Source of the DNA: Thermoproteota archaeon
GTDB lineage: Archaea; Thermoproteota; EX4484-205; JAAOZP01
DNA: 64,000 nt
Direction: 5' to 3'
NCBI GenBank assembly: GCA_038861395.1
Contig: JAWCDE010000001.1
Location: 73,144 to 137,143 of the forward strand
The position numbers and the translations under genes were made by a program. Shown here one piece after another: positions 8,155 through 61,626 of the stretch. The notes below the pieces were generated by a model. The model was not told where the DNA came from. It saw only the letters and a list, made by a program, of their open reading frames with translations, and searched no databases. The first letter of the stretch is position 1; each line of letters opens with the position of its first letter.

Positions 8155-8158
8155 GCCC

Positions 8159-8773: not shown

Positions 8774-8946
8774 CCTTAGTCGTTTAACCTTCTTAACGTG
8801 GCTTAAATATTTTTATTCATGATTTACGGCGGGAAAACATGGATGGAATAAGCTGCGAAGAACATGCTCCAGCGGGTTTGGTTCATAAAACTTTTGAAAA
8901 CGATAAAACTTAATTAGGAAAAGCATTCTATTAAGTCGGAATAGAA

Positions 8947-11914: not shown

Positions 11915-12119
11915 CTGCCGACTTATATAGCTTTTTATATGGGTTTCAATACAATCTTCTTTACTAGTTTATTCACAAAAACAGAGGTATCGTTACCAAA
12001 TAAATAAGCATGGTTTTATTAGCATCAAATAAATCGTGCAGAGAGATGAAGCGTGTTGGAAAATCTAACAGGAGTCAAGTTAGAAAAACTTTAAATCGTG
12101 AGGATGTGAAAATTCCACA

Positions 12120-12211
12120 GCCCCAGTAGCTCAGCCTGGTTAGAGCGCCTCCTTGGTAATGCTGAAAAGCGCTGATGGAGGAGGTCGTGGGTTCGAAGCC
12201 CACCTGGGGCT
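12120..12211 (+). tRNA. tRNA-Thr (anticodon GGT) with a ~17-nt intron in the anticodon loop
   Basis: Hand-folded: acceptor GCCCCAG/CTGGGGC, D-arm GCTC-AGCCTGGTTA-GAGC, anticodon stem CCTCC/GGAGG, loop TTGGTAA, intron tgctgaaaagcgctgat, T-arm GTGGG-TTCGAAG-CCCAC, discriminator T. Confidence 0.75.
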
Positions 12212-12261
12212 TGGATTAAGACTTATAATGTGCCTTTGTGTTAGAAAATCGGTGGATCTCT

Positions 12262-13326: not shown

Positions 13327-13343
13327 ATTCCTTAGAGAAATCA

Positions 13344-13433
13344 AGCCTCGGGAGGGATTCGAACCCTCGACCTGCAGCTATCTCAGCCTCTTGCTTACGA
13401 GGCTGCCACTCTACCAGGCTGAGTTACCGAGGC
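13344..13433 (-). tRNA. tRNA-Thr (anticodon CGT) with a ~16-nt intron at or near 37/38
   Basis: Reverse complement folds as GCCTCGG-TA-ACTC-AGCCTGGTA-GAGT-G-GCAGC-CTCGTAA-[gcaagaggctgagata]-GCTGC-AGGTC-GAGGG-TTCGAAT-CCCTC-CCGAGGC-T. Confidence 0.72.
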
Positions 13434-13514
13434 TCATCCTAATATCTCTATGGAGAAGCTTAAAATTCTTTCCCTAGCCTTATTTATAGTTTAAAAGTTA
13501 TTTTTTTATTTGAG

Positions 13515-26208: not shown

Positions 26209-26299
26209 TGCGGCGCCCGGGATTTGAACCCGGGATTCCCAGCTTGGGGGGCTGGTTTTAGGGAAGCAAGCCTGTCCTACCAGGCTAGACCAGCGCCGC
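26209..26299 (-). tRNA. Probable tRNA-Gly (anticodon CCC) with a 17-nt non-canonical intron between the D-stem and the anticodon stem
   Basis: Reverse complement: GCGGCGC-TG-GTCT-AGCCTGGTA-GGAC-[aggcttgcttccctaaa]-A-CCAGC-CCCCCAA-GCTGG-GAATC-CCGGG-TTCAAAT-CCCGG-GCGCCGC-A. Arms are near-identical to the intronless tRNA-Gly(TCC) at 43127-43201. The anticodon loop is unusual (C33). Confidence 0.55.
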
Positions 26300-43126: not shown

Positions 43127-43201
43127 TGCGGCGTCCGGGATTTGAACCCGGGATCCCCAGCTTGGAAGGCTGGTGTCCTAACCAGACTAGACGAACGCCG
43201 C
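43127..43201 (-). tRNA. tRNA-Gly (anticodon TCC), intronless
   Basis: Reverse complement: GCGGCGT-TC-GTCT-AGTCTGGTTA-GGAC-A-CCAGC-CTTCCAA-GCTGG-GGATC-CCGGG-TTCAAAT-CCCGG-ACGCCGC-A. Confidence 0.8.
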
Positions 43202-43307: not shown

Positions 43308-43913
43308 ATGAGGAAAATCATAGTTGTTACTGGCACACCTGGAACCGGCAAAACATCTCTGTGCAGCTATGTAGTGAGAAAGAATAGAGGATGGGTGCAT
43401 CTTGACTTGGGAGAGTTTGCAATAGATTCGAATGCTGTAGTTGGCTACGACAGTATTATGAAAACTAGAATTGTGGATACAAACGTTCTGAAGAAGGCTT
43501 TACGAAAATATATTTTAAGCAAGCTTGAAGAGGATTTAAACCTCCTAATAGACGGCCATTATGCTGCGGAGGTTTCTCCAGCTGACTACGTGGACTGTTG
43601 TATCGTATTGAGATGCAGACCCGATGTTCTTTGGCATAGACTCAGGAAAATTAGAGGATACAATGAGGAAAAAGCGAGGGAGAATCTTGAATCAGAGCTT
43701 ACGGATTATTGCTACCTAAATGCTAAAAAATACTTGAAAAAAGTAAGGATCATACAGTTAGACACTACTAGGAAAAGCATTAAAAAACTCTATTACAGGT
43801 TTATGAAATGCTATAAGAATGACTTTAAATGTAAGAGTGATGAAGTGGATTGGATTAGCTATTTCTCTAAGCATTCCGAGAAGCTGAATCTCCTTTTTCG
43901 TTTGAATCGATAG
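43308..43913 (+). CDS. fap7: Fap7/adenylate-kinase-6-like NTPase with C-terminal extension
   Basis: P-loop VTGTPGTGKTS, the DGH motif, and LRCRPDVLWHRLRKIRGYNEEKARENLESEL, which matches the archaeal Fap7 lid region. The C-terminal 60 aa are AT-rich and overlap the convergent HerA-like gene by 47 nt. Confidence 0.6.
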   Translation: MRKIIVVTGTPGTGKTSLCSYVVRKNRGWVHLDLGEFAIDSNAVVGYDSIMKTRIVDTNVLKKALRKYILSKLEEDLNLLIDGHYAAEVSPADYVDCCIVLRCRPDVLWHRLRKIRGYNEEKARENLESELTDYCYLNAKKYLKKVRIIQLDTTRKSIKKLYYRFMKCYKNDFKCKSDEVDWISYFSKHSEKLNLLFRLNR

Positions 43914-45663
43914 ATAAAAGGATTGGTTTAGAAATGCCTTCAGCCGTTAAAAAGCCGTATCCCGGGGGAAGCCTCTTAAGAAGGTCATAATCTTCCTGAG
44001 GTAAACCCATTATATCCATTAGGATTCTCGACTCCTCCCCCTCGCATATTCTATGAGAGATTTTCAAACCGGTGGACTTTATTATTTCTGGAGAAATCTG
44101 TGACGGAAATTGTGATATAAGTATTAAACTTTCATTAAACTTCCTCATCTCTAAAAATAATTTTTCAGCTATAGTCGGTGGTGAATCACGCCTCCTGTAA
44201 GGAAGTATATTATGCGCTTCTTCTAATACGATGAAGTGGCGTTTTGCATTCCTATTCTTTAATCTAAATTCGTAAAGTAATGCTAAAATGAAAAGTGAAG
44301 TCAGTTTACGCATATCCACTTCTATGATATCTCCGAGCTCGAAAACAGTAATTCCTTCTAATATATCTTTGATGCTTATTAGCTTATCCCTATTGCAGAA
44401 AATTTCTCTGTTCTGTCCTGTTACTAGAGGCCTTAATCTTCTTAACAATGCAAACTTCGTCTCATTTTCATAGAATGATTTAATACTCCATTTCTCTAAT
44501 GTATCTATAAAGGAAACCAAAGGATCATGTGCTTTAATACCGAGCATGTTCTCTGTTAACGTTTGTAAAAGCACCTCTCTAAACATATATGATTGTGACG
44601 GCGTAAAATTATATATTTGATCAAAAATATCTGTAACTATTGCAACATGCTCAGATACATTGTTAGATTCAATAGGGTTAATTATATCTAGAGTGAAAGA
44701 CCCTAATCCTAAAATTCTTCCATTAAGCTCTTCTGCAAGATGACGGTATTCATTATGCCAGTCTAGAATCATTAAAGAATATCCCAATCTTGCTAATTCT
44801 CTTACTATATGTTTGGCGGTAGTTGTCTTTCCCGATCCTGTTGAACCATATATGGCGACATGCTTCTCAAACATATTGATCTTTAATTTTAACGGAGCAA
44901 TTTTAGAACCACTGAAAATAACCGATCCTAAATCTATTGTTTCTTTTTCCCCCTCATGTTCAATATAAGAATTTGAAGGAAGCAGGGAAGTATAGCCAGG
45001 TATATGCGGTGCGAGCGAATTTGCTAAATCTCTTGCTTTAGACTTTCCTAAGAAAGGTTTATCTATTAAAATACTGTTCAAATACTTAATAAGTTTCTCC
45101 CCCTTCAATCTGACTATTTTCAGTTCTGGAAAAGCAGTATTGTAAATAGATCTAATTTTTTCAATATCTGTTTCAAGCATTTTTATAGCTTCGTTAATGC
45201 CCTCTCGACCTATTTTTCTACTAACTATTAAAAGCTGCGTCAAATGAGCAGAGTCCTCAGAAGCCTCAATGGGAGAAATATGCGTTACGCATGTGAGTGA
45301 AACTCCGGACTTTAAAATACCGCTTATGAAACTCTGAACCTTCCGATAGTAATCGTCGGCTTTAATACTGCTTAATTCAGAGCTTTCTTCAGGAGATATT
45401 GAAACCCCTCCTATTATTAATTCAGAGGAGTCTGTTTTCACAATAAAGTATTTTTCGTCATTAATTGGTAGTATACTTTTAATAGATTTGGAGCGTTTTA
45501 ATAAAAACGCTATTATGATGGTTATTAGGGAGAATACTATAGGCAAAACAGCTGGAAAATAATTGTTGAAAGAAAAAGGCAAAGCGGTTATAATATGTTT
45601 AAACATCAATATGAGTAACACTATCAGAAATATGAAGTATATTGGATCTATTTTTTGATCCAT
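43867..45663 (-). CDS. Membrane-anchored HerA/VirB4-type (DUF87) ATPase, CedB/TrbE-like
   Basis: Two N-terminal TM helices, then a HerA-FtsK-superfamily core: Walker A AIYGSTGSGKTT followed by ILDWHNEY, and Walker B FIVLEEAHNIL. 598 aa. Last gene of the island operon. Confidence 0.7.
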   Translation of the reverse strand: MDQKIDPIYFIFLIVLLILMFKHIITALPFSFNNYFPAVLPIVFSLITIIIAFLLKRSKSIKSILPINDEKYFIVKTDSSELIIGGVSISPEESSELSSIKADDYYRKVQSFISGILKSGVSLTCVTHISPIEASEDSAHLTQLLIVSRKIGREGINEAIKMLETDIEKIRSIYNTAFPELKIVRLKGEKLIKYLNSILIDKPFLGKSKARDLANSLAPHIPGYTSLLPSNSYIEHEGEKETIDLGSVIFSGSKIAPLKLKINMFEKHVAIYGSTGSGKTTTAKHIVRELARLGYSLMILDWHNEYRHLAEELNGRILGLGSFTLDIINPIESNNVSEHVAIVTDIFDQIYNFTPSQSYMFREVLLQTLTENMLGIKAHDPLVSFIDTLEKWSIKSFYENETKFALLRRLRPLVTGQNREIFCNRDKLISIKDILEGITVFELGDIIEVDMRKLTSLFILALLYEFRLKNRNAKRHFIVLEEAHNILPYRRRDSPPTIAEKLFLEMRKFNESLILISQFPSQISPEIIKSTGLKISHRICEGEESRILMDIMGLPQEDYDLLKRLPPGYGFLTAEGISKPILLSIDSNEKGDSASRNA

Positions 45664-45667
45664 TATT

Positions 45668-45856
45668 TTAAGGAAGGAGCCATCCGAATAGGCTATAGCC
45701 TAAGTCGCTTACACCCTTTATTAGAGAGTTGAAGAAATTAGCTATGTTATCCACGATTTGTTTTGAAACCCCAAAGACTGCTCCAAGCATTACTAGTGCG
45801 AGTACAACAAGCAATCCCTCTTCTATTAATTGCGATCCCTTAATTCTCGTTTTCAA
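45668..45856 (-). CDS. Pilin-like small protein with a class III (prepilin-type) signal peptide candidate
   Basis: MKTRIKG|SQLIEEGLLVVLALVMLGAVFG: a basic leader, G at -1, then a hydrophobic helix. 62 aa. Sits between the TadC-like and HerA-like genes. Confidence 0.4.
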   Translation of the reverse strand: MKTRIKGSQLIEEGLLVVLALVMLGAVFGVSKQIVDNIANFFNSLIKGVSDLGYSLFGWLLP

Positions 45857-45920
45857 ATCTACATCACCTCATTTACAGAAGGAGATGAACAAAATATAAG
45901 CTCCAATGGAATTGAGACAT

Positions 45921-47277: not shown

Positions 47278-49140
47278 CTATTTCCTCCCTAAAGTCTTCG
47301 AATAGGTTTCAAGAACAAGGCCCCTGATAACGGAGTTTTCTGAAAAACCGTGATTAATAATTATTCTTTTAATATCCTCATATATTTCTTGAAGAACATT
47401 TTCTTCAATACAGTTTAAACGTGCTAATTTTCTAAATATCTTTGAAGCGTTTAAATCATCATAATATGGAGAATTTTTCAAAAAATTATTATTAGCGTAA
47501 ACTTTCTTCAAACCAGAGTTCTCATCAACTATCTTTATCTCGCTTATAAACCGTTTAACCGTATTTCTCCATTCTAATCTCTTCATATTTATTATTAAGT
47601 CTAGCTCTGGTATGAGTAATTCTGGGATGCCGTATACTTTTACAAGCCTCTTAATAAACCCATTGCTATCGGAAGCGTGTGCAGTATGCATTATCCTGAG
47701 TCCAGCGGAAACTGCTCGAAACATTGCTTTTACATGCCCCCTGGTTTGGATCTCTCCAAGAATTAGATAAGAAGGGGTTCTGTGAAGTACCTTAATTATT
47801 TCGAGAGTTTTAGTATCCTTAGCCTCCCTGCTTTCCAATGGCTCGACAATGTATACTATCCTGTGTTGATCAGAAACTCTTGGAGGAAGCGTTTCAAGAG
47901 CGTCTTCTATATGCACTATGCGCCACCAAGGGGGCATGAAGTAGCTTAAAAAGTTTAAGAGAGAAGTTTTTCCAGAATTTGGTTCTCCAACTATAGATAT
48001 GTTGGCCCTGTTAAGCGTGGCAAAGATTAAGAAGGCAGCAGATTCTGGAGAAAAATAATGCGTCTCCAGAAGGTACTTGAGAGGAAGAACATTACTCATA
48101 TGCTTTCGTACATCTATAACTCCTTTACCCCAGGTTAGGGGAGGAATATCTACCGAAATTCTTATAGGTATTTTATCAAAAAATATGGAAGTCTTAATTG
48201 AAGGATTAGCATAATCCAGATTAAGGTTAGACTCTCTTTTGATCAGGGTTATGAAGCTTTCAAAATCCTTCTCTTGAAATTTGAGGTTTGTATCTAGTCT
48301 TCCAAAAACGGCGTGGTCTACATATAACTTTTCACCAACATTGTCTAAGAAGAAGTTTTGCACGTTATCATCGATTATTAAAGGAAAGATCTTGGATAAT
48401 CCAATCGAAGAATATAGAGCATGTTTAACAAGAGACTTCTTTACGGATTTCTCGATTTCTCTTAAAGTCAGAATGTTTAAGAATCTTAAACCAGTTTTAA
48501 GCCTATGTCTGTAAATTTGATCTAGTCTTCCACTCCTAAGCATTTCTTCAGAATAAGCATAACGTAAGAGTATCGAAAGCTCTTTATTAATCCAGAAATA
48601 ATCATCTGATAAGAAGGAAACTCTGTAAAGACTATTTCTTTCGTCTATTGAGTAGAGTAAGTGGCCTATTACGTATCTATGATCGTCTGAAAACTTCTTG
48701 TTAAAAACATTTTCCCTATCTTTAATACCGCATTTGGTCAATAACTCGCCGGGTATATTAAGTTCCAGCATCTGGTTTAAGTATTTTAAGTATAAGGTAC
48801 CGTAAGACGGAGTAATGCAGAGCTCTTTCTGAATGTCATCTAGGTTAGTGTAGTTATCACAATTTTTTTCAGCAAGAGCTCTATAACGCTTGTTTTTCTC
48901 TTCCATAACTCTTTGAGAGCATTTCTTTAGAAAATCTAAGCAATCTTTATTGACCTCGTACCATTCATCGTCAAGATAAACTATAATTCTTCTCGGGGAA
49001 AGATGTGTAAGCTTATGTATAATGCTGCAGAAAAGGGAAGAGTCGATTTTCTGAGCGGATAGGTAGAGAATTCTACTCCTAGCATTCCATGACCATGTTC
49101 TTCGTGCAAAAAATACGAGGCTTTCTCTAGTCTCGCTCAT
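47278..49140 (-). CDS. Type II/IV secretion system ATPase (FlaI/TadA/VirB11-GspE family) with a long N-terminal extension
   Basis: C-terminal domain with Walker A IVGEPNSGKTSLLN, the Asp box and LILGEIQTRG (GEIR-type motif), and the His box HTAHASDS. About 330 aa of N-terminal sequence of unknown family. 620 aa. Confidence 0.75.
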   Translation of the reverse strand: MSETRESLVFFARRTWSWNARSRILYLSAQKIDSSLFCSIIHKLTHLSPRRIIVYLDDEWYEVNKDCLDFLKKCSQRVMEEKNKRYRALAEKNCDNYTNLDDIQKELCITPSYGTLYLKYLNQMLELNIPGELLTKCGIKDRENVFNKKFSDDHRYVIGHLLYSIDERNSLYRVSFLSDDYFWINKELSILLRYAYSEEMLRSGRLDQIYRHRLKTGLRFLNILTLREIEKSVKKSLVKHALYSSIGLSKIFPLIIDDNVQNFFLDNVGEKLYVDHAVFGRLDTNLKFQEKDFESFITLIKRESNLNLDYANPSIKTSIFFDKIPIRISVDIPPLTWGKGVIDVRKHMSNVLPLKYLLETHYFSPESAAFLIFATLNRANISIVGEPNSGKTSLLNFLSYFMPPWWRIVHIEDALETLPPRVSDQHRIVYIVEPLESREAKDTKTLEIIKVLHRTPSYLILGEIQTRGHVKAMFRAVSAGLRIMHTAHASDSNGFIKRLVKVYGIPELLIPELDLIINMKRLEWRNTVKRFISEIKIVDENSGLKKVYANNNFLKNSPYYDDLNASKIFRKLARLNCIEENVLQEIYEDIKRIIINHGFSENSVIRGLVLETYSKTLGRK

Positions 49141-49283
49141 CTGTAGACAACCTTTAGGAAATTGCTTAGCTCACGATACTTTTTCTCCAAGCTTAAAACC
49201 CTGTTGTTGAGCTTGCTTAGACTAATCTTCAAATCCTCTATTTCTTGAATTATTGCATTAATTAATAGATCGTCTTTGGACAT
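49137..49283 (-). CDS. 48-aa coiled-coil micro-ORF translationally coupled (ATGA overlap) to the secretion ATPase
   Basis: Translated by hand: MSKDDLLINAIIQEIEDLKISLSKLNNRVLSLEKKYRELSNFLKVVYR*. Its TGA stop overlaps the ATG of the downstream ATPase gene. Not in the ORF track because it is under 60 aa. Confidence 0.35.
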   Translation of the reverse strand: MSKDDLLINAIIQEIEDLKISLSKLNNRVLSLEKKYRELSNFLKVVYR

Positions 49284-49371
49284 CACTTCTATTCTAAACT
49301 TTTAAAAAGAATATTTATCTGCCAATATTGACACTCATTGGAGGTTATAAGCATTCTTACAGAGATTTCTG

Positions 49372-49554
49372 TTGAATAATGAAAGAAAATTTCAAACTGG
49401 GAGGTTTAGAGAGATGAGTAATCTGTTAGAGAAAAGTCTGATAGTGCTTTTTTCAACAATAATCTTTGGAATTAGTATTGCTTACTTGCTTGATCAAGTA
49501 GTTCCTATGCTCAAGCAAATATACGATGTCGTAGTTAAACTGATTACTGGCTAA
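49372..49554 (+). CDS. Small membrane protein (pilin-like candidate)
   Basis: 60 aa with one hydrophobic helix (LIVLFSTIIFGISIAYLL) after a basic leader. First of four co-oriented small genes. Confidence 0.3.
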   Translation: MNNERKFQTGRFREMSNLLEKSLIVLFSTIIFGISIAYLLDQVVPMLKQIYDVVVKLITG

Positions 49555-49559
49555 CTCGG

Positions 49560-49955
49560 GTGAGATCATTGAGCGAAATACTTGAAGAACATTTGAAAGA
49601 TGCTTCATGGCTTTTTACATCACTTCTAATAGGAATTGTTATTTTTAATACTGCTTGTGTTCTGAAAACGGATTTCTTGAAAAATATCTTTGAAAGCATA
49701 TTTTTAGTAATAAAACAATACGCCGTCCTTTCGGAGGAGCATGGATGTACTTTCACTCTGTTAATGCCAAGTCCTCCCTTAATTAATTATTCCATTATGC
49801 TTGACGGCAACAAGTATTACATTATTATTCATGGGATCTGTGTTTTCGAGGGGGAAGAGGAATATTATTACTTTAATAGAGTCATTTTAGAACCTGGAGG
49901 CAAATATTTTGTAAAAGCATCAGGTAGGGAGGTTGTATTTACTAGGCATGAGTGA
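49560..49955 (+). CDS. Small protein with N-terminal TM helix (pilin-like candidate)
   Basis: 131 aa. GTG start. The hydrophobic segment WLFTSLLIGIVIF lies near the N-terminus. Confidence 0.3.
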   Translation: MRSLSEILEEHLKDASWLFTSLLIGIVIFNTACVLKTDFLKNIFESIFLVIKQYAVLSEEHGCTFTLLMPSPPLINYSIMLDGNKYYIIIHGICVFEGEEEYYYFNRVILEPGGKYFVKASGREVVFTRHE

Positions 49956-50072
49956 TAAGCTACTCGAATCACTATTCTCCTCAATCGTAGTCTTGCTGAT
50001 AATAATCGAACTTGGTTTGGCTCTTTTGCTTACCTTACATAATATATCTATTATGATGGGCTTCATTAAAAG

Positions 50073-50468
50073 GTGGTGAAAAATACTATGGATTCTTGGG
50101 AAAGTATGTTAGCAATAATCTTAAGCTTCTTTCTAGTTATACCCGTGGTTGCTGCTTCCCAATATTTGAGGTTGAAATTCAAATCATTATCCGATATCGA
50201 TGAGGATTTGAGAATAGAGGTTAATGCACTTACGATACTTGACCAAGAACATGAGATCAAAAATATGCTCGAGAAATTGATTAAATTTCTAAATTCTGAT
50301 GAAGTAGAATGGGTGAGTATAGAGCTTTCCAGCGAGAAGCATGGGAGGATTACAATAAGGAATGAAAGAGTTTCAATAGAGTCTTGGAAGCAGGTCAAAT
50401 ATGTCAAAGTCTTAAAGATCATGGGCGAAGATGTATTGTATCTTACGATAGGGATTAGAAATGATTAA
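50073..50468 (+). CDS. Small protein with N-terminal signal/TM (pilin-like candidate)
   Basis: 131 aa. MLAIILSFFLVIPVVAAS then a soluble domain. Confidence 0.35.
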   Translation: MVKNTMDSWESMLAIILSFFLVIPVVAASQYLRLKFKSLSDIDEDLRIEVNALTILDQEHEIKNMLEKLIKFLNSDEVEWVSIELSSEKHGRITIRNERVSIESWKQVKYVKVLKIMGEDVLYLTIGIRND

Positions 50469-50964
50469 AACCTGGCTTATTGTAGTGTTTGTTTCAATTC
50501 TCATAATGATTGTTCTACTTGCAGTAAACCTCATGCTCTTAGTAAATGTTGAGCTTTCAGTAAATTTCTTAAAACAAAAAAGGAAAGCGATAATCGCTGA
50601 TTCCTGTATAGATGATTTCTTTAAAAGTATTAGCACAATTCTGGATGATAGCATAAGTAGTTCGAGAGGGAATTTTTCAATTATGAGGGAAACCTTAGAA
50701 AAGAGGATTGAAAAATTAATGGAAAAAGTTTCAAAAACCAAAGGATTTTTAGAAGAATGCGGATTAAAAATCTGCTTTGAAAACTCTATTGTTTTCCTCA
50801 ATAATACTGAAGAATACGTTATCCAAATAGCTGTTAAGGCTTATGCAGAAGACTGCGAAGGATTTTTCTCAATTAGGCGTAGTAGCAATATAGTACGTTT
50901 CCTTCGTCAAGAAATCTGTGAAGAATCGAATATTGCTGAACTTTTTCCAAACAATTCCTCATAA
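50461..50964 (+). CDS. Small protein with N-terminal TM helix (pilin-like candidate)
   Basis: 167 aa. WLIVVFVSILIMIVLLAVNLMLLV. 8-nt overlap with the preceding gene. Confidence 0.35.
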   Translation: MIKTWLIVVFVSILIMIVLLAVNLMLLVNVELSVNFLKQKRKAIIADSCIDDFFKSISTILDDSISSSRGNFSIMRETLEKRIEKLMEKVSKTKGFLEECGLKICFENSIVFLNNTEEYVIQIAVKAYAEDCEGFFSIRRSSNIVRFLRQEICEESNIAELFPNNSS

Positions 50965-51836
50965 GTTTCTCTAACACTGTATTCTGCATATCCTATGTAC
51001 TCTGCTAATTCCCTTTGAGTAACGGGGTTTTTGATGTTTAAGATTGATGCTGCTTCTTTAGATGCTGCGTAAATTATAGAAGCTATGCATATCATCGGGT
51101 TCTTGCTTCTAAAAAAATAATGTTTGGCTCTTAAATCTTTGAGAATTCTTAATGAGATTGTTTTAAGATTATTGATAAAATTGACTTTGTCTTCAGGTTT
51201 AAGCTTTTCCAGACGGCTATTATTCCTCATGATCATAGAGGTGATTTCAATAATTGTCTTATCAGCATCGTTTTTCGTTTCCATAAGGCCTATCTCTCTT
51301 GCTGCAGACATTACTTGAAGAATATCCCTGGTTTTAACTTTAAGACCGATGCTTTGCAAATATATCCTTATCTTCTTGTAATGAGGAGCTATGCTTAAGC
51401 CATGGAACCTTGCTGCAACAACTACAGAATACGTTGCAATAGCTGCTCTATTAGGTCTTTCACGATTTTGTCTGAATACATGAAGCAGGCTTAAACCAAT
51501 CCGATGCGATTCCAGTCTTATTGAGGGACCTAAATGGAATGTATCACACAATTTATCTATTAACCATTTTAATTCGCTTTCGCTTTTATTAGAGGGGGAT
51601 ATGCTCTTTTGGAGGCTGGAGATTTTTCTAAGAGAGTTTTTCTCTATAATAATGCTCCCGTAATGAGGTTCTTTTTGAATAATGTGATTCGGACTTGGAT
51701 GGGCCACATATCTGTTCGAAGCACTAACAACTAGACCGCATCTGCTGCAAACAAGCTCATTATCCGAACTTATAATGGGGGAGTTACAGTTAGGGCATTT
51801 CGTAAAGTCTTGGACTACTTCTTGGCGCATCTTCAA
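50907..51836 (-). CDS. tfb: Transcription factor B (TFIIB) paralog, divergent
   Basis: N-terminal TFIIB zinc ribbon (CPNCNS...CSRCG) followed by two cyclin-like repeats (RPNRAAIATYSVVVAARFHG... and ...NPMICIASIIYAASKEAASILNIKNPVTQRELAEYIGYAEYSVRETYEEL). 309 aa. AT-rich. Confidence 0.72.
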   Translation of the reverse strand: MKMRQEVVQDFTKCPNCNSPIISSDNELVCSRCGLVVSASNRYVAHPSPNHIIQKEPHYGSIIIEKNSLRKISSLQKSISPSNKSESELKWLIDKLCDTFHLGPSIRLESHRIGLSLLHVFRQNRERPNRAAIATYSVVVAARFHGLSIAPHYKKIRIYLQSIGLKVKTRDILQVMSAAREIGLMETKNDADKTIIEITSMIMRNNSRLEKLKPEDKVNFINNLKTISLRILKDLRAKHYFFRSKNPMICIASIIYAASKEAASILNIKNPVTQRELAEYIGYAEYSVRETYEELFGKSSAIFDSSQIS

Positions 51837-51953
51837 AGTAACATAGTCTGTTAATCGATAAAAGCTACTATGAAATAGAGTTATGCTCTAAAGTAAATAA
51901 CATGCTTCAGAAAGTATTAAAAATAGGGAGTGGAGTGTAAAAATGGGTTAAAA

Positions 51954-53086: not shown

Positions 53087-54343
53087 ATGCTTATAAAATT
53101 TTTAGGGGGTGTTCGCGAAGTAGGAAGGTCTGCCATATATTTGGCGGATGAAGGGAAGCGTTTTCTCCTAGACGCGGGTGTCATGCTTTCAGGAAGGGAA
53201 GTAAAGTATCCGATGCATATTCCTCCAAGAGAAGTAGATGAAATAATTATTACTCACGCTCACCTAGACCATGTCGGAGCCGCCCCTATTTTCTTCATAG
53301 GCTTAGGGAGAAGGTCCTTTCTAACCACGCTGACCGCCCCCTTGGCGAAGCTCATCCTATTAGACTTCATAAGAGTATCTAAAGGAGTATTGCCCTTTGA
53401 AATACTTGAAGTAGATAAATTCGTTGAGAAGTCTGAAAAACTTAATTACCATCAGGAGGCTTCAAAGAACGGGTTCAAGCTGACATTTCTTCCGGCTGGT
53501 CATGCTCCTGGAGGAGGCCAAGTCATGCTCGAATTTAAGGGGCGGCGGATACTTTACACAGGTGATATTAATACTGTTGAAACCACCTTGCTTAAGGGTG
53601 CTTTTACAGACTATCCTCCTATAGACATAGCAATTGTAGAAAGTACCTATGCTAATAAGAATCATCCGGTGAGGGAGGATATCGAGAAGGAATTCGTCGA
53701 GAAGCTTGAAGAAGTTGTTGAAAGAAAAGGAATAGCGTTGGTACCTGCTTTCGGAATAGGAAGGTCTCAGGAAGTTATAACGATACTCGCTAAATACTCG
53801 TTTCCATATGAAGTTTACTATGACGGTATGGCTAGAACAGTGACACAGATATTGTTCGAATTCCCAGAATGGCTATCTAACCCGAGCCTTTTGGAGAAGG
53901 CAGCTGGCGAAGTGATATGGATAAATACCCAGAGGCAGAGGGAGTCTGCCTTAAAGAATCCAGGGGTAATAGTTACTCCAGCAGGCATGTTGCAAGGCGG
54001 ACCAGTAAACTTCTATTTGAAGAAAGTAGGAGATTCTAAGAAGAATCTAATAGCTTTTGTTAGCTACCAAGTGAATGGGACTCCTGGAAGGCTTCTATTG
54101 GAGAAGGGAGTAATTACAGTTGATGGAAAACTGGTTAGGGTAAAATCTGAGATAAAACACTTCGAATTATCTTCCCACAGTGGTAAGAGCCAGCTCGAAG
54201 CGCTGATTAAAAAGATTAATGCTGACACGACTTTCATCGTCCACGGCGAATCGGAAAACTGTGAAAGGCTTGCAGAATATGCAAGGAGGATTCTGGGGCT
54301 TAAGGCGTTTGCTCCCAAACTCGGAGAAAGCTATACTCTATAG
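53087..54343 (+). CDS. Beta-CASP metallo-beta-lactamase ribonuclease (aCPSF2-like)
   Basis: A 418-aa protein with ITHAHLDHVG, YTGDIN, ESTYAN and the SSHSGKSQL beta-CASP motif C. Confidence 0.7.
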   Translation: MLIKFLGGVREVGRSAIYLADEGKRFLLDAGVMLSGREVKYPMHIPPREVDEIIITHAHLDHVGAAPIFFIGLGRRSFLTTLTAPLAKLILLDFIRVSKGVLPFEILEVDKFVEKSEKLNYHQEASKNGFKLTFLPAGHAPGGGQVMLEFKGRRILYTGDINTVETTLLKGAFTDYPPIDIAIVESTYANKNHPVREDIEKEFVEKLEEVVERKGIALVPAFGIGRSQEVITILAKYSFPYEVYYDGMARTVTQILFEFPEWLSNPSLLEKAAGEVIWINTQRQRESALKNPGVIVTPAGMLQGGPVNFYLKKVGDSKKNLIAFVSYQVNGTPGRLLLEKGVITVDGKLVRVKSEIKHFELSSHSGKSQLEALIKKINADTTFIVHGESENCERLAEYARRILGLKAFAPKLGESYTL

Positions 54344-54557: not shown

Positions 54558-54895
54558 ACTAGCTTGATTACAAGAATACTCTTATATTCTTTTTCCCCTT
54601 TTTAATAGTCTATCCTTTCTTAGCCCTCATCTCAGTCCTCTTGGGCCTTAAATTCTTGCTGTGGCATTTCCTACACTTTTTAGCAGTAATCGCATTCCTT
54701 GCCCCACACTTTCTGCATATCATGAAGCGGAGCCTCCGCCTCTTTATAATTTCTATCAACACAGGGTCGCTTATCTTCATACCGTTTTCCCAGCCAGCTC
54801 CAAGTTTTTTAAAGATTTACCCGCCGCTTATCTTTCTCAGGCAGAGCTTTAAAACGGGAAGATTTAAAAAGCATTCTTCAAGTCAAAGGTAGCGT

Positions 54896-57764: not shown

Positions 57765-58463
57765 ATGTTAAGCATTTTGCAAGCTTATAACTCTCGGAGA
57801 CTTTGGAACGACATGAGTCTGGAGTATCAGAAGAAGACTATGGAATTTTACAATGCCGTGGCAGAGGAATTCAACAAGACAAGAGTAAAACCCGATCCTT
57901 TTCTAGAGATGCTGGTAATGAGGAATTTTGCCAGGGGTTCCAGATTCATACTGGATAATGGCTGTGGCAATTGTAGAAACCTCAGACTCTTCAGCGAAAA
58001 AACCGTTTTGATAGCAGGAGATATCTCAATAAGTATGTTGAAACAGTGTATGAAGAATAAATCTGGCTTAAACATCCACTACTTACAGTATGTTTTAACG
58101 CACCTACCCTTCAGAAATAACGTTTTCGATGGGATAGTTTGCATAGCTACTGTACACCACTTGAAGAAGAATGACGTTGTTAAAGCAATGATGGAAATGA
58201 AGAATGTTTTAAAAGATAAGGGTTGGCTACTAGTATCCTCATGGTCTACAAAAATGTTGAGAAGTAAAAAATTCTCGAAGAAAGTCGAAAAGATGGATGA
58301 AGACTACTTTCTAATAAAATGGGGGAAGTACAAAAGGTTCTATTTCCTCATGGATGCTAGGATGCTTAGAAGACTATGCGAAGAAGCAGGCTTTAGAAAT
58401 ATTGTGGCTTTAGAACATGGTATGAATAGTTATGTTCTGGCAGAGGGGAAAGCGAATCATTAA
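57765..58463 (+). CDS. Class I SAM-dependent methyltransferase
   Basis: A motif I-like ILDNGCGNC. 232 aa. The true start may be the internal MSLEY at 57813. Confidence 0.5.
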   Translation: MLSILQAYNSRRLWNDMSLEYQKKTMEFYNAVAEEFNKTRVKPDPFLEMLVMRNFARGSRFILDNGCGNCRNLRLFSEKTVLIAGDISISMLKQCMKNKSGLNIHYLQYVLTHLPFRNNVFDGIVCIATVHHLKKNDVVKAMMEMKNVLKDKGWLLVSSWSTKMLRSKKFSKKVEKMDEDYFLIKWGKYKRFYFLMDARMLRRLCEEAGFRNIVALEHGMNSYVLAEGKANH

Positions 58464-58563
58464 AGATTGTTGAGTTTTTGAGTGGAAATCCTACGAGCCT
58501 TTCATGGTTAGATACAATGTTTAGCAAAAAGATTTATTTCCCCCTGAATGATTTTTTCCTTCA

Positions 58564-58638
58564 GCTCCGATGGTGTAGCCCGGTCAAGCATACGAGCCTC
58601 TCGAGCTCGGGGCCCGGGTTCAAATCCCGGTCGGAGCA
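58564..58638 (+). tRNA. tRNA-Glu (anticodon CTC), intronless
   Basis: GCTCCGA-TG-GTGT-AGCCCGGTCAA-GCAT-A-CGAGC-CTCTCGA-GCTCG-GGGC-CCGGG-TTCAAAT-CCCGG-TCGGAGC-A. Confidence 0.85.
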
Positions 58639-58843
58639 TTTTAAACGAAGCTTTTAAGTCAGGTGAGAGAAATATTTTAGAGCGATTGTTTTAATTTCAG
58701 GAAGGGAATAATATGGGTTGATTGTTTCAGGGCCATTCAAATACTTCTGGTCTTTTACTGTAAAAAATTGACAGGATGTAACTTTAACCCTAGTCCCGTT
58801 AAACGGATAAGTTCAAATATATCAGGAGGCCTACGCTGAAAAG

Positions 58844-60022
58844 TTGGAATCCGGAAAGTCAGAGCACGCGTTACTCAGAATATCAATAGTAGGTGGGCTT
58901 GTCTGGGCTTCGTTCGCTCCCTTCAGTCTTTTTCTCGGAGTCTATTTAATATCCCAAGGCTTATCATATGCTTCCATTGGCCTGCTGATGACAACCACCA
59001 GTATACTATCTTCCTTTCTACAACTAGCCTTTGGCTCATTAGCAGATAAGTATCAGAATACGAGGCTTATAATTTCACTCACACTTCTTGCTAGAAGCAT
59101 CGCATGTCTAATACTTGTATTTTCAAGAGACTTGGCAAGCATCCTATTATGGTATATTGTGTCAGGTGTTTTTCTCTCTGGATTTTTACCGATTGCCCAA
59201 TCTATGGTTGCAAAACTTTCTGAGGATGAAAGACTCGGCTTTTCCATGGGGAAATACAGATTATCCGGATCTCTAGGATGGGCTTTTTCCTGCATACTGA
59301 CAGGTCTATTCGCCAGGTATGAAATGTGGAATATATTTCCAATAACACTGATTCTATCCTTTTCCTCTTTTCTTACAAGTTTAGTAATACCGGAAGTCGA
59401 AGGGATTGCAGTAAGTCATCGCGAAATTGGGAGACGTGAAACGCGCAAGCCTGCTAAACTGATTGTTTTCTTCATACTCAGCATATTTCTGTCAAGCTTA
59501 AGTATGAGTGCCGCATCCTCATTTTTAAACATCTTTCTTTTCCAATTGGGAAGCGATCCTTTTTTCATAGGTATTATCATTGCAATAGGCGCGTTCTTAG
59601 AAGTCCCCGCCATGTACTTAGGCGGAATATTATCGGATAAGATTGGCGAAATACTGGTTTTAATGGCGGGGGAAATGGGTTTAGGAGTAATTTATTGGCT
59701 TTATGGAACTGTTAAAAATATTTACACTTATATTATTATCCAAGGGTTTAGGGGAATCTTATATGCGTTCTTTATGGTTTCAGGAATGTCATTAAGCTCA
59801 AACGTGGGGGATGTTGGGAAAAAGGGTTTCTACGCTGGGCTCTATAATCTTTCACTCCAATTCGGAATGGCGTTAGGGCCTTTTCTAGGAGGCTTAGTCT
59901 CAGATGCTTTTGGATTATTAGCGATGTTCGTAACTGTTTCAATACTTTCAGAATTGTCATCAGCCCTACTAATCCCATTTGCTTTTAGTGCTAAGAAGAA
60001 AAATAGGCTTAAAGTTTCTTAA
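58844..60022 (+). CDS. Major facilitator superfamily transporter
   Basis: A 392-aa protein with about 12 TM segments and MFS-like loop motifs. Confidence 0.65.
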   Translation: MESGKSEHALLRISIVGGLVWASFAPFSLFLGVYLISQGLSYASIGLLMTTTSILSSFLQLAFGSLADKYQNTRLIISLTLLARSIACLILVFSRDLASILLWYIVSGVFLSGFLPIAQSMVAKLSEDERLGFSMGKYRLSGSLGWAFSCILTGLFARYEMWNIFPITLILSFSSFLTSLVIPEVEGIAVSHREIGRRETRKPAKLIVFFILSIFLSSLSMSAASSFLNIFLFQLGSDPFFIGIIIAIGAFLEVPAMYLGGILSDKIGEILVLMAGEMGLGVIYWLYGTVKNIYTYIIIQGFRGILYAFFMVSGMSLSSNVGDVGKKGFYAGLYNLSLQFGMALGPFLGGLVSDAFGLLAMFVTVSILSELSSALLIPFAFSAKKKNRLKVS

Positions 60023-61626
60023 TCAGTCTTGCTCTTCTCTTCCTTAGGTTTGAAAGATATTATTACTTCATCGACTCCAATTATGGATGAAGCCAGTTCT
60101 ACGGCAGAAGCAAGCCAGTTTTTAACAACCAAGTAGGGTTCAACCACTTCTTTATCAAGGCTCTCTATCTCCCTTTTTATAGCGTTCACTCCATAAGTCG
60201 CGCCATCGCTCGAAGAATGCTTTTTCTTAAGCATAGTCATTGCTGCTACTGGTTTCATCCCTGTATTAGTTACGAGAGTCCTCACCAATGACTCTATACT
60301 ATTTGCAAAAGCCTCATAAATCAGCCTCTCCTCTCCCTCCATGGTCTCAGCCCTGCTTCGTATCGTCTTCTCTATTTCCATTAGCTCTGCTCCCCCGCCA
60401 ATCACATACCTAGGATCTTTGTAGAGGCTTAAGATGGCCGAAAGTGAGTGTTTCAATTCTCTCTCATACTCTTTCAAAAGATCCTCGTTTACCCCCCTCA
60501 ATAGTATTGAGACAGCCTTGGGTTCTTCACACCCTTCTACGAAGACTATCTTCTCGTTTTCGAATACTTCTTCCTTAACAAGGCTTGCTCTACCAAGCTT
60601 ATCCGCAGTAATATCTTCTGGATCAGACACTATTTTCCCACGGGTTGCTCTCTCCAGCCTCTCCATATCAGATCTCTTTACTCTTCTAACTGCCGTTATA
60701 CCATTCTTGTAAAGGTATTGTTGTGCAAGCTCGTCTATTCCCTTTTGACAGAAAACTACGTTTGCTCCCGATTTAACTATTGCATCAACTTTATCGCGAA
60801 TTATTTTCTCCTCTTCCTCAATGAACCCGCGTAATTCCTCAGTAGTCTTCACTTCTATTTCGGTGGAGATCTCTGTCTTCTTCACTTCAAGAGCATAGTC
60901 TATTAAGGCTATTTTTGCATCTTTAACGGTTTTATTCATGTTTGGATGTACAATCTCCTTGTCGACTATGATCCCGTTTATCAATCTAGAGTTCAATACC
61001 TCGTTCCCCCGTTTCCTGACGATGCTCACCCAATCTACGTCAGCATAATACCCGCCGTTTCTCTTCTCGATTATTTTCTCAGCTGCTTCTAAGGAAATCT
61101 CGCCGAGAATCCTCCTCTCCTCCTGGGATGAGAAGAACGTGATGGCTGTTTCAGCGATTTTTCTCAGAAACTCTCTATCTTGGAGATCAGCTCGTTTAGC
61201 ATCCTTCTCCAATTGTCTGAGAGCTTCTGATAAGGCGCTATGGTATCCTCTGGTTATCGAGATAGGACTTATGCCCTGCCTATACAACTCATAGGCGTTT
61301 CTAACGAGTTCGCACATTAATAATATCAGAGAAGTCGTTCCATCTCCTATTTCTTTCTCCAATGCCTTGGCAGCGTCTACAATCATTTTTCCGATGGGGT
61401 GTTCAATATTCGCTTCGCTAAGGACTGTTACACCGGTCTTTGTAACGGTTATGTCTCCGACTGAGCCTACTAAAAGCTTGTTTAAACCGCGAGGCCCGTA
61501 GGCAGTTCTCAAAATCTCCCCTATAATAAGCGATGCTACAATATTGTTTTCATAGGCCTCTTCCTTACTCCTTCTTATAGTGGTCTCCTTTAATACTATT
61601 GCTGGCCTCACTTGCTCATAGGACAT
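60019..61626 (-). CDS. thsB: Thermosome subunit (second paralog)
   Basis: A 535-aa protein with GPRGLNKLL, GDGTTS and other group II chaperonin signatures. Diverged from the copy at 24350. Confidence 0.92.
   Translation of the reverse strand: MSYEQVRPAIVLKETTIRRSKEEAYENNIVASLIIGEILRTAYGPRGLNKLLVGSVGDITVTKTGVTVLSEANIEHPIGKMIVDAAKALEKEIGDGTTSLILLMCELVRNAYELYRQGISPISITRGYHSALSEALRQLEKDAKRADLQDREFLRKIAETAITFFSSQEERRILGEISLEAAEKIIEKRNGGYYADVDWVSIVRKRGNEVLNSRLINGIIVDKEIVHPNMNKTVKDAKIALIDYALEVKKTEISTEIEVKTTEELRGFIEEEEKIIRDKVDAIVKSGANVVFCQKGIDELAQQYLYKNGITAVRRVKRSDMERLERATRGKIVSDPEDITADKLGRASLVKEEVFENEKIVFVEGCEEPKAVSILLRGVNEDLLKEYERELKHSLSAILSLYKDPRYVIGGGAELMEIEKTIRSRAETMEGEERLIYEAFANSIESLVRTLVTNTGMKPVAAMTMLKKKHSSSDGATYGVNAIKREIESLDKEVVEPYLVVKNWLASAVELASSIIGVDEVIISFKPKEEKSKTD

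Follow-up and report, generated by a model that had tools for sequence, protein, structure and literature searches.

Canonical TFB and TFIIB use their B-reader and B-linker for promoter opening and start-site selection. The C-terminal HTH of TFB reads the BRE, an element located directly 5' of the archaeal TATA box that sets the direction of transcription. TFB3 of the Sulfolobales is a truncated paralogue composed of a zinc ribbon and a coiled coil, devoid of the cyclin core and of the BRE-reading HTH; it acts in trans with TFB1 and its gene does not lie beside its targets. TFB3 activates the UV-induced ups pili and the ced DNA-import genes (PMC6101594, PMC6101591, PMC11823120), and controls in this way a type IV pilus and HerA-superfamily import ATPases (CedB/CedD). 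An in silico precedent for TFIIB homologues beside archaeal type IV pilus (T4P) loci dates from 2016, when those assigned to arCOG01981 were predicted to be regulators (Makarova, Koonin & Albers 2016, PMC4858521). In thaumarchaeal ICEs a TFIIB homologue is found with FlaI-like and VirD4-like ATPases, TadC-like membrane proteins and pilins; these TFIIBs are carried by integrated elements, usually beside ParB and together with VirB4 (Krupovic et al. 2019, PMC6563490).

The TFB-like protein described here is encoded in a window of 64,000 nt (JAWCDE010000001.1, positions 73,144 to 137,143, forward strand), to which all coordinates refer (Table 1). Like the TFIIBs of T4P loci, it has a zinc finger and two cyclin domains and is found beside a T4P-like locus. 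It differs from the 2016 set in that its family is undetected by the Pfam TFIIB repeat and in that a box in the BRE position could be identified; the passages of that study on these loci are census-level, without analysis of promoter elements or of reader, linker and HTH, and do not mention a HerA/CedD-like ATPase (PMC4858521). The presumed targets of the TFB-like protein are similar to those of TFB3 and both proteins are without a canonical B-reader. Unlike TFB3, it has kept the two cyclin folds together with an HTH, in altered form, and its gene lies beside the presumed targets. Its gene company recalls that of the ICE TFIIBs (PMC6563490); unlike theirs, its locus is inherited vertically and keeps its synteny among Brockarchaeota. 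A previous sequence-only reading of this DNA compared the protein with TFB3 and with TFBs encoded by elements; the comparison is apt, and its general idea is already published (PMC4858521, PMC6563490). No description of the cognate box or of the altered helix was found in the literature searched.

A divergent TFB homologue

The ORF list gives 309 aa to the TFB-like protein if a TTG is taken as the start codon. In the family alignment its orthologues open at an in-frame ATG found 2 codons past this TTG (MRQE...), which makes the ATG at 51830 the probable true start of a protein of 307 aa. The gene has a GC content of 0.368 (GC3 0.335), and its 3' end shares 58 nt with the final gene in a convergent set coding for four small proteins. 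The neighbouring pilus/ATPase module has a GC content of 0.344 versus 0.435 in the remaining window. The sequence-only reading had presented the gene as AT-rich, convergent with a pilin-like set and next to a secretion operon; the composition, the overlap and the adjoining ATPase operon bear this out.

Pfam Zn_Ribbon_TF (PF08271) matches residues 13-38 slightly under its cutoff (28.0 bits, cutoff 29, E = 1.6e-6). The segment aligns with the canonical ribbon and its Cys14/17/30/33 are nearly invariant across the family. The Pfam TFIIB repeat PF00382 gives no match at E < 0.01, a partial match to the NCBIfam TFIIB model covers residues 220-296, and PDB sequence and profile searches yield only marginal TFIIB or zinc-ribbon matches (E = 0.004-0.5). 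This left modelling and hhalign to establish the fold. In the AlphaFold2 model (mean pLDDT 70), residues about 81-181 form one helical bundle and residues about 190-296 another, and the best 31 Foldseek matches of the model in the PDB are all TFIIB, TFB or Brf. The best archaeal structural match is the core of P. woesei TFB (PDB 1D3U/1AIS), which has the same domain order and fold (1d3u_B, target-normalised TM 0.64, rmsd 4.8 Å, 219 columns). Alignment of the family to canonical TFBs by hhalign extends over 261 columns, from ribbon to HTH, with 98.8% probability and E = 6e-17. Sequence and model comparisons show a true but extremely divergent TFB homologue, in agreement with the earlier description of a TFB paralogue with a zinc ribbon and two cyclin folds.

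Identity to canonical TFB is about 20%. The 16 canonical TFBs compared share an invariant B-reader motif, G-P-E-W-R, and an invariant B-linker motif, H-D-x-G-L-x-T; none of 27 family members has either, and in the family about 30 fewer residues separate ribbon and core, with a gap of 25 columns in the alignment. Residues 39-80, which take the place of these elements, have pLDDT below 50 in the model and display near-invariant positions specific to the family (Y43, Y59-G60-S61, S73, Q76). The linker had been called unusual, and checking the residues of B-reader and B-linker (EWR and HDxGL missing) shows that it is. The term full-length, also applied to the protein, holds for the ribbon, the two cyclin folds and the HTH; it fits only in part, since the reader/linker segment has been shortened and has lost its conserved motifs. 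The HTH itself has a recognition helix AEYSVRETY (Y-A-E-Y-S-V-R-E-T-Y), invariant in the family as is the G282-E293 block, where canonical TFBs have TEVT[IV]RNRY. The signature AEY[ST][IV]R[ED] of this helix is present in about 75 distant representatives.

Table 1. Coordinates of the TFB-like gene, its domains, the neighbouring module and the promoters in the 64,000-nt window
Feature	Position	Strand	Basis
TFB-like gene	50907..51836	-	ORF list, family alignment, hhalign, AF2 + Foldseek
TFIIB-type zinc ribbon, residues 13-38, CxxC...CxxC	51723..51800	-	Pfam PF08271 + alignment
Short, non-canonical linker replacing B-reader/B-linker, residues 39-80	51597..51722	-	pLDDT, alignment
First cyclin-fold repeat, residues about 81-181	51294..51596	-	AF2, Foldseek, hhalign
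Second cyclin-fold repeat, residues about 190-296, HTH at end	50949..51269	-	AF2, Foldseek, hhalign
HTH with altered recognition helix TQRELAEYIGYAEYSVRETYEELF	50949-51020	-	hhalign, family alignment
Probable TATA of TFB-like gene, GCTTTTATCG, ~30 nt 5' of ATG	51855..51864	-	read from alignment
Four small proteins with hydrophobic N-termini (46, 131, 131, 167 aa)	49414..50964	+	ORFs, synteny
Promoter of pilin-like operon, TTGGAG/GTTATAAG, BRE-position box + TATA	49338..49351	+	alignment
Promoter of 49-aa ORF/ATPase operon, TTGGCA/GATAAATA, placed for leaderless transcript	49312..49325	-	alignment
Conserved 49-aa coiled-coil ORF, overlaps ATPase start	49137..49286	-	conserved in relatives
FlaI/TadA-like type IV filament ATPase, 620 aa	47278..49140	-	Pfam T2SSE, NCBIfam FlaI
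Two membrane proteins, 193 + 257 aa	45921..47272	-	conserved position
Internal promoter 5' of 62-aa prepilin-like gene, TTGGAG/CTTATATT	45893..45906	-	alignment
62-aa Flp-like prepilin, MKTRIKG/SQLIEEGLL...	45668..45856	-	identity, motif
Membrane-anchored HerA/FtsK-superfamily ATPase, distant CedD/VirD4-like	43867..45663	-	Pfam, NCBIfam
AAA_18 kinase-like gene, convergent with and overlapping HerA-like gene	43308..43913	+	synteny

The predicted pilus/ATPase module and its conservation

The filament ATPase matches Pfam T2SSE (E = 6e-12) and, under the cutoff, NCBIfam FlaI (103 bits). A Tad/Flp-type filament system would be expected to have, besides a T2SSE-family ATPase, a T2SSF-family platform and a prepilin with a class III signal and Glu+5. 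The 193-aa and 257-aa membrane proteins are probably a split platform like TadB/TadC of bacterial Tad. A T2SSF match was obtained for the orthologue of locus L025 only and is weak (Pfam, 20.6 bits, cutoff 25.2); Pfam gave nothing reliable for the two membrane proteins of the window and the 49-aa ORF. The 62-aa prepilin is the best-conserved protein of the module, with 76-84% identity, and the motif [KR]xx[GA]/xQL[IV]EE can be read in the sequences of 23 loci. The short Flp-like prepilin with G or A followed by xQLxEE and the TadA/FlaI-like ATPase recall Tad/Flp pili. The sequences of the four-gene operon products show xxL[LI]E motifs at the N-terminus, and these proteins are probable minor or pilin-like subunits. 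The module has no prepilin peptidase; one is listed for a Brockarchaeota MAG in a published table.

The HerA-like ATPase has Pfam matches to DUF87, TraG P-loop and TrwB_AAD_bind. Its full-length score to CedD (NF053655), 211 bits, is far under the equivalog cutoff of 600, indicating a distant homologue and not an equivalog. The module shares this CedD/VirD4-like membrane ATPase with Ced/Ted, but no homologues of CedA, CedB or VirB4 were seen in it. An operon that pairs a CedD-like ATPase with the ATPase of a type IV filament differs from the published Ced, Ted and Ups layouts.

Linkage of the TFB-like gene to this module is strict and ancient. The gene adjoins those of the T2SSE ATPase, platform and prepilin in every locus with sufficient flank, and an identical arrangement is found in 14 GTDB species (Brockarchaeota-type) and in metagenome contigs. 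The locus is flanked by genes for RadA, AspRS, L40e, an aCPSF-like protein, PAC2 and LSm on one side and by AAA_18 on the other, flanks that are constant even in relatives whose TFB-like protein is 53-62% identical. In genome pairs where this protein has 53-71% identity, RadA, AspRS and LSm are 81-93% identical (RadA 88-93%); the TFB-like protein evolves at a rate like that of the module. The remote homologue P0029 has the same cassette between different flanks, and AAA_18 accompanies the cassette in remote relatives. In the wider clade defined by the AEY helix, the T2SSE ATPase is found 2.0-3.4 kb downstream in 28 of the 35 assessable loci.

Promoters of the module

A divergent region had been proposed at 49141-49371. 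Divergent promoters do lie there, in a narrower interval (about 49287-49413) because the conserved 49-aa ORF fills 49137-49286. All three promoters of the module have TTGG(Y)G in the BRE position beside the TATA box. The element is absent from the ordinary promoters of the window, which are A/purine-rich at the BRE position, and the alignment shows no TTGG box at the promoter of the TFB-like gene itself. In the divergent region of 18 loci, TATA_L-C-NCCAAY...RTTGGYG-N-ATAAATA is kept while its surroundings diverge, with a spacer of 10 to 12 bp between the two TTGG boxes. As CCAAT-N-ATTGG, the inner pair of boxes makes up an inverted repeat. Both point outward, each to its own operon, which fits the rule that the BRE sets transcription direction. 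The third box is found about 40 nt 5' of the prepilin gene.

TTGG occupies positions -6..-3 of 57 out of 3070 TATA-like octamers; about 46 of these are the three module promoters, and about 10 would be expected by chance. Scanning the window by itself for the 14-nt pattern, one mismatch allowed, reveals no enrichment (4 matches versus 2.8 expected), and support for the box comes from its positional conservation across related, non-independent genomes. The equivalent promoters of the remote cassette L025 read GTTGGCG/TATTTAAG and GTTGGCT/CTTAAATA. GC-rich relatives have a degenerate version of the box, GT[TG]G[GCT][CT]G as read by eye. Recognition helix and box core are both near-constant across loci, hence there is no covariation to read. 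The sequence TTGCTG/TTTAAAAA that recurs 5' of AAA_18 in one subclade is missing from the window and was not counted in the regulon.

Candidate role and competing explanations

Since the linkage to the module is constant and the same box is found at three promoters, the TFB-like protein could well be the module's own initiation factor, and we regard the chances as even that it is an alternative, module-dedicated TFB with a cognate BRE box. The idea of a dedicated factor, put forward from the sequence alone, fits this linkage, the module-like rate and the common box. Such a factor would bind TBP-bent promoter DNA via its two cyclin folds, while the rewritten HTH (AEYSVRETY for TEVTVRNRY) would read the non-canonical element TTGG(Y)G 5' of TATA and the intact zinc ribbon would recruit RNA polymerase. 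It would switch on, in the fashion of a sigma factor, a Tad/Flp-like filament system with a CedD/VirD4-like membrane ATPase. We infer that the box is read by the TFB-like protein itself rather than by another factor, and that the effect on the module is activation; the module would function in adhesion and/or DNA exchange. Loss of B-reader and B-linker casts doubt on the ability of the protein to drive initiation alone.

That it could be the sole or principal, housekeeping TFB of the genome is barely credible. In the 64-kb window and the fetched loci of relatives (flanks of about 20 kb), tblastn with canonical TFBs reveals no further TFB, and the 120 matches listed for canonical P0158 are Bathyarchaeota-type proteins only, with no canonical TFB of the Brockarchaeota-type lineage among them. 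The NCBIfam TFIIB model NF001658, however, gives the TFB-like protein 24.3 bits for a cutoff of 384, and the canonical P0158 and P0119 score 340 and 229 bits; the family representative P0021 has no match to this model. The reader/linker motifs invariant in canonical sequences are missing, the protein changes far faster than RadA, AspRS and LSm, and its family is a single 50%-identity cluster within one lineage. In addition, for MAG JZZ.4 (Brockarchaeota), which carries the TFB-like locus L013, a published operon table lists a second gene of the TFIIB family (COG1405), located on a different contig. Judged by sequence, the protein differs clearly from a housekeeping TFB, as had been proposed. 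The constancy of the locus also bears on the very unlikely case of a TFB belonging to a recently integrated mobile element and serving this element, not the host. Thaumarchaeal ICEs carry TFB-like proteins (PMC6563490), the related P0030 has a virus- or MGE-like context, a tRNA-Gly gene is found 100 nt from the module edge and the window has an 8-kb low-GC stretch that had been viewed as an island. The GC dip is nevertheless much weaker in relatives, a search near the low-GC stretch and the tRNA-Gly gene turned up no convincing direct repeats of att type, and a Pfam scan of eleven module ORFs gave no match to integrase, ParB or VirB4 families. Since the same chromosomal flanks enclose the locus in the 14 Brockarchaeota-type species, where RadA is 88-93% identical, the low-GC stretch does not appear to be an island of recent acquisition. 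Ancient capture of an element-derived cassette is possible.

Two further explanations give the protein another activity. An unlikely one is a negative or auxiliary factor that would hold TBP/TATA while the promoter stays closed without B-reader and B-linker, blocking the housekeeping TFB as a repressor or decoy or acting only with it in trans. A protein that keeps its ribbon, its HTH and the two cyclin folds around a segment shortened by about 30 aa, with low model confidence at residues 39-80 and the reader/linker motifs missing, would suit this role, for which TFB3, an incomplete TFB paralogue that controls ups/ced, is a precedent (PMC6101594, PMC6101591). Yet the linker is not decayed, its near-invariant Y43, Y59, G60, S61, S73 and Q76 suggesting a retained function, and an activating initiation factor would require just this, a dedicated and conserved box next to a good TATA that is spaced appropriately for leaderless transcripts. 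Pyrococcus furiosus TFB2, moreover, is without the conserved B-finger and still supports transcription. Somewhat less probable again is that CCAAT-N-ATTGG is the operator of another dimeric regulator, the TFB-like protein having a role other than promoter selection, for example by helping a DNA-transfer machine to bind DNA or to assemble. The inverted repeat of the inner boxes and the VirD4/CedD-like neighbouring ATPase point in this direction, as do the ParB adjacent to the thaumarchaeal ICE TFIIB homologue (PMC6563490) and the non-standard transcription-related roles speculated for a T4P-linked TFIIB variant (PMC4858521). A spacer that varies from 10 to 12 bp, with halves that nearly abut in GC-rich relatives, is however unusual for a rigid dimer site and fits two independent BRE+TATA units. 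The box at the prepilin TATA is solitary, with no partner half-site, and Pfam reveals no other protein with a recognisable DNA-binding domain in the cassette.

The reading as a module-dedicated TFB can be extended, more tentatively and with the balance somewhat against it, to the whole TFB clade with the AEY helix and a truncated reader/linker, which would form with a G/T-rich BRE (TTGGYG / GT[TG]GNYG) a cognate pair, comparable to a sigma factor and its promoter, for a portable cassette. This cassette is found in at least 388 loci from soil, peat, sediment and hot-spring metagenomes. Promoter selectivity among archaeal TFB paralogues is a long-standing question and, to our knowledge, clear TFB/BRE cognate pairs are scarce. 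Here a candidate factor, a rewritten helix and a conserved box at three promoters are all contained in 8 kb, and the pairing is therefore directly testable though the organisms are uncultured. Pilus-mediated DNA exchange has so far been studied in Sulfolobales and Thermoproteales. The widespread cassette, which unites a type IV filament machine and a CedD/VirD4-like ATPase, may carry this process to Brockarchaeota and many soil and peat archaea. If the proposal is correct, it would represent a widespread, self-regulated archaeal module for DNA exchange or adhesion outside the Sulfolobales.

Fold and departures from canonical TFBs

The TFB-like gene occupies the minus-strand ORF already delimited by the sequence-only reading (see table). 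Its start is likelier to be the in-frame ATG two codons downstream of the TTG, at position 51830 (307 aa), because orthologues begin at this codon (MRQE...). Family models score the product poorly: Pfam recognizes nothing beyond the TFIIB zinc ribbon (28 bits, cutoff 29), the TFIIB cyclin repeat being unmatched, the NCBIfam TFIIB model reaches 24 bits (cutoff 384) over residues 220-296 only, and PDB sequence searches give marginal matches. TFB homology is nonetheless secure. Profile-profile comparison of the 27-member family with 16 canonical TFBs yields 98.8% probability (E = 6e-17) across 261 columns that begin with the ribbon and end with the C-terminal helix-turn-helix (HTH). The AlphaFold2 model (mean pLDDT 70) has a ribbon and two helical bundles, and each of its best 31 Foldseek matches in the PDB is a TFIIB, TFB or Brf structure, among them the Pyrococcus woesei TFB core (target-normalised TM 0.64, rmsd 4.8 A). 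The ribbon and two cyclin folds proposed earlier are thereby confirmed.

The unusual linker is also real. Residues 39-80 connect ribbon and core; canonical TFBs have about 30 residues more here, and the segment is modelled with low confidence. The EWR (B-reader) and HDxGL (B-linker) motifs, invariant in the 16 canonical TFBs, are missing. The segment keeps nearly invariant residues of the family's own, indicating that it was remodelled rather than decayed. The recognition helix of the C-terminal HTH reads Y-A-E-Y-S-V-R-E-T-Y, invariant in the family, in place of T-E-V-T-[IV]-R-N-R-Y. In an exhaustive profile search of 1.84 billion representatives, the whole family falls into a single 50%-identity cluster, followed by about 165 other divergent TFB-like proteins at E = 1e-27 and weaker. 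The helix variant AEY[ST][IV]R[ED] (AEY helix) is present in about 75 of the 149 outgroup matches listed; only a handful of the 149 are canonical TFBs.

The amino acid sequence identities point to fast evolution of the TFB-like protein: it shares 53-62% with four relatives in which RadA shares 88-93%, AspRS 81-82% and LSm 81-84%, and 71% with a closer fifth (L007). Proteins of the adjacent module show similar values (29-62%). The AT-richness noted earlier holds, with a GC3 of 0.335 for the gene and a GC content of 0.344 for the module versus 0.435 in the remainder of the window.

Coordinates of features in the window and in relatives' loci
Feature	Sequence	Position	Strand	Remarks
TFB-like ORF	window	50907..51836	-	309 aa from TTG
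3' overlap of TFB-like and convergent 167-aa genes	window	50907-50964		58 nt
Similar 3' overlap	L001	10906-10960		example of overlap kept in relatives
49-aa ORF	window	49137-49286	-	predicted coiled-coil; stop overlaps ATPase start (ATGA)
Divergent intergenic region	window	~49287-49413		
AAA_18 gene	window	43308-43913	+	nucleotide-kinase-like; cassette end
AAA_18 gene	L025	16148-16732		remote cassette
beta-CASP/metallo-beta-lactamase gene	window	53087-54343	+	418 aa; without aCPSF1 N-terminal KH domains
Thermosome and MFS genes	window	57765-61626		beyond RadA/methyltransferase
tRNA-Gly(TCC)	window	43127-43201	-	~100 nt from the AAA_18 edge of the module
tRNA-Gly(TCC)	window	26209-26299	-	91 nt; may contain an intron
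tRNA-like gene (ARAGORN)	window	12119-12212	+	odd anticodon loop
tRNA-like gene (ARAGORN)	window	13343-13434	-	odd anticodon loop
TTGG+TATA-like match	window	51124-51137	+	antisense in TFB-like gene
TTGG+TATA-like match	window	54641-54654	+	inside L40e
TTGG+TATA-like match	window	60119-60132	-	3' part of thermosome gene
P0030 gene	L027 (GCA_030157145.1, JASDBE010003788.1)	8001-8921		distant AEY-helix TFB-like protein
TFB-like gene, HerA-like fragment, AAA_18	L038	10001-12484		

The putative filament and ATPase module and its surroundings

The minus strand of the module carries, in order, the 49-aa ORF, a FlaI/TadA-like ATPase (Pfam T2SSE match), two membrane proteins, a 62-aa protein and a membrane-anchored HerA/FtsK-superfamily ATPase. 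The 49-aa ORF has no family match and is kept as an ORF of 43-51 aa in all Brockarchaeota relatives. For the first membrane protein, one orthologue shows weak similarity to T2SSF. The 62-aa protein is the best conserved of the module (76-84%). Its N-terminus is prepilin-like, reading [KR]xx[GA]/[SVA]QL[IV]EE[AG][LI]L in 23 loci, some of them remote; Glu stands at +5, and the mature part is short and Flp-like. With the NCBIfam CedD model the HerA-like ATPase aligns along its whole length, and its 211 bits fall far short of the 600 required of an equivalog. The plus strand encodes four small proteins whose N-termini are hydrophobic; their genes converge on the TFB-like gene, which the last of them overlaps. 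The orthologue of the 167-aa protein is labelled COG1378 (TrmB-like regulator) in a published operon table (PMC8065059), a label that Pfam does not support in the window. A Tad/Flp-like type IV filament system to which a CedD/VirD4-like ATPase has been added is the best description of the module, and we infer a function in adhesion, DNA exchange or both.

In most cases the AAA_18 gene is convergent with the HerA-like gene and overlaps it (window, L025 and many of L028-L096). It is probably a cassette component, since it accompanies the cassette even where every other flank differs.

The order RadA, AspRS, 164-aa protein, L40e, aCPSF-like, PAC2, LSm, TFB-like gene, small ORFs, ATPase operon and AAA_18 is common to JGI contigs, NCBI MAGs and 14 GTDB species representatives, named Brockarchaeota or generically labelled. 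The 418-aa beta-CASP gene is conserved and syntenic in all relatives; its product matches only positions 177-628 of the aCPSF1 model and scores 207 bits with the type VII CRISPR Cas14 model, far below the cutoff of 800. The thermosome gene of L007 lies, as in the window, beyond RadA and the methyltransferase. L004 and L006 have thermosome and MFS genes on the opposite side, after AAA_18, suggesting that a segment was inverted or rearranged, with one break at the module edge. No repeat of the 3' end of the tRNA-Gly gene next to AAA_18 was found across the module. The two tRNA-like genes with 2- or 4-base "anticodons" are probably intron-containing archaeal tRNAs misread by a bacterial-mode scan.

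Linkage extends to remote relatives. The gene for the closest outgroup protein, P0027, has the familiar neighbours, an LSm gene on one side and convergent small ORFs on the other. P0029, with about 23% identity to the window protein, is encoded with the same cassette, AAA_18 included, on a contig of 333 kb where the flanking genes are all different. Scanning JGI metagenomes for the AEY helix turned up 388 relatives. Among 80 loci kept, 45 of which are too short to judge, a T2SSE ATPase is found 2.0-3.4 kb downstream on the same strand in 28, mostly followed by the HerA-like ATPase and the convergent AAA_18 gene; seven, mostly the most distant matches, lack it within at least 4 kb of downstream flank. 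In L038 a HerA-like fragment and AAA_18 come immediately after the TFB-like gene, with no T2SSE ATPase; this may be a degraded or rearranged cassette.

A box beside TATA at the module promoters

The divergent promoter region, previously placed at 49141-49371, is shorter because the 49-aa ORF takes up 49137-49286. Alignment of 18 loci shows poor conservation save for one core, which in the orientation of those loci is CTTATAA-[CT]-C-N-CCAA-[CT] ... [AG]-TTGG-[CT]-G-N-ATAAATA. Both divergent promoters read RTTGGYG-N-WTAWAWR from the operon side, with TTGGYG directly before TATA, each box upstream of its own TATA relative to the gene faced, and 10 to 12 bp between the boxes. A BRE sits against the TATA box, where the TFB HTH reads it, and gives the complex its orientation; the TTGGYG box has this position and polarity. 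For the ATPase operon, the distance from TATA to start is compatible with a leaderless transcript. Of 17 relatives, 15 have a third copy about 40 nt upstream of the prepilin gene, TTGG[TC]G followed by CTTA[AT]AT[TC], whose window counterpart is TTGGAG followed by CTTATATT. The remote cassette L025 has GTTGGCG followed by TATTTAAG before the ATPase operon and GTTGGCT followed by CTTAAATA before the prepilin gene. By eye, GC-rich relatives show two opposed TATA boxes, each after GT[TG]G[GCT][CT]G.

In the window and 16 Brockarchaeota loci, TTGG occupies -6 to -3 at 57 of 3070 TATA-like octamers (about 10 expected by chance), about 46 of them being exactly the three module promoters. Since the genomes are related, what counts in favour of the box is its conservation, not independent occurrences, and the window alone gives no statistical enrichment of the pattern. 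Ordinary window promoters (LSm, L40e, thermosome and others) are A/purine-rich at the BRE position. Three further matches in coding regions recur in the closest relatives only and look like chance or coding constraint.

Roles considered for the TFB-like protein

The window protein is almost certainly not the housekeeping TFB, considering its model scores, missing motifs and evolutionary rate, and the earlier distinction stands. No second TFB is present in the window or relatives' flanks, and the search for the lineage's canonical TFB returned Bathyarchaeota-type proteins only, among the matches listed. The Brockarchaeota operon table has a second COG1405 (TFIIB-family) gene of about 311 aa in MAG JZZ.4, also the source of locus L013, at the start of a different contig with unrelated neighbours (PMC8065059); this table entry is suggestive of a separate TFB. 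That the protein is a recent mobile element's factor is very improbable. The contig of P0030 (17 kb, mostly small unknown ORFs, plus genes for a DNA methyltransferase and an ATP-dependent DNA ligase) resembles viral or other mobile-element DNA, so that the AEY clade seems to have element-borne members too. The module itself shares its synteny among relatives, has no flanking att-like repeats and, among its ORFs scanned with Pfam, no integrase or ParB match, and its GC dip is much weaker in relatives. It is not a recently acquired "island"; in this lineage it is chromosomal, inherited vertically and evolving fast.

The reading best supported, with about an even chance of being right, is a module-specific initiation factor. 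The cyclin core would bind TBP and DNA, the rewritten HTH would read TTGGYG and the zinc ribbon would recruit RNAP, resulting in sigma-like selection of the three module promoters. The dedicated factor proposed from sequence gains from the observed fold, linkage, rate and box geometry; we infer that the protein reads the box and activates. The missing B-reader and B-linker give a modest chance to a decoy, repressor or trans-acting helper. The two inner boxes together form an inverted repeat, at which an unrelated dimeric regulator could bind while the TFB-like protein does something else; we hold this to be unlikely.

The general idea of a TFB homologue linked to such a module is not new. TFIIB homologues were found in all thaumarchaeal integrative-conjugative elements, where they co-occur with FlaI-, TadC-, VirB4- and VirD4-like genes (Krupovic et al. 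2019, PMC6563490), and Sulfolobales TFB3 activates ups and ced genes (PMC6101594, PMC6101591). Unlike the former, the window gene is not borne by such an element; its product is not of TFB3 type because the core is retained, and it does not match canonical TFBs in motifs, recognition helix or model score. We did not find, in the literature searched, a distinct AEY-helix clade with shortened reader/linker, a cognate G/T-rich box at all promoters of a module, or a cassette pairing a type IV filament ATPase with a CedD-like ATPase. Tentatively, a widespread sigma-like TFB/BRE pair may control a portable filament/DNA-translocase cassette.
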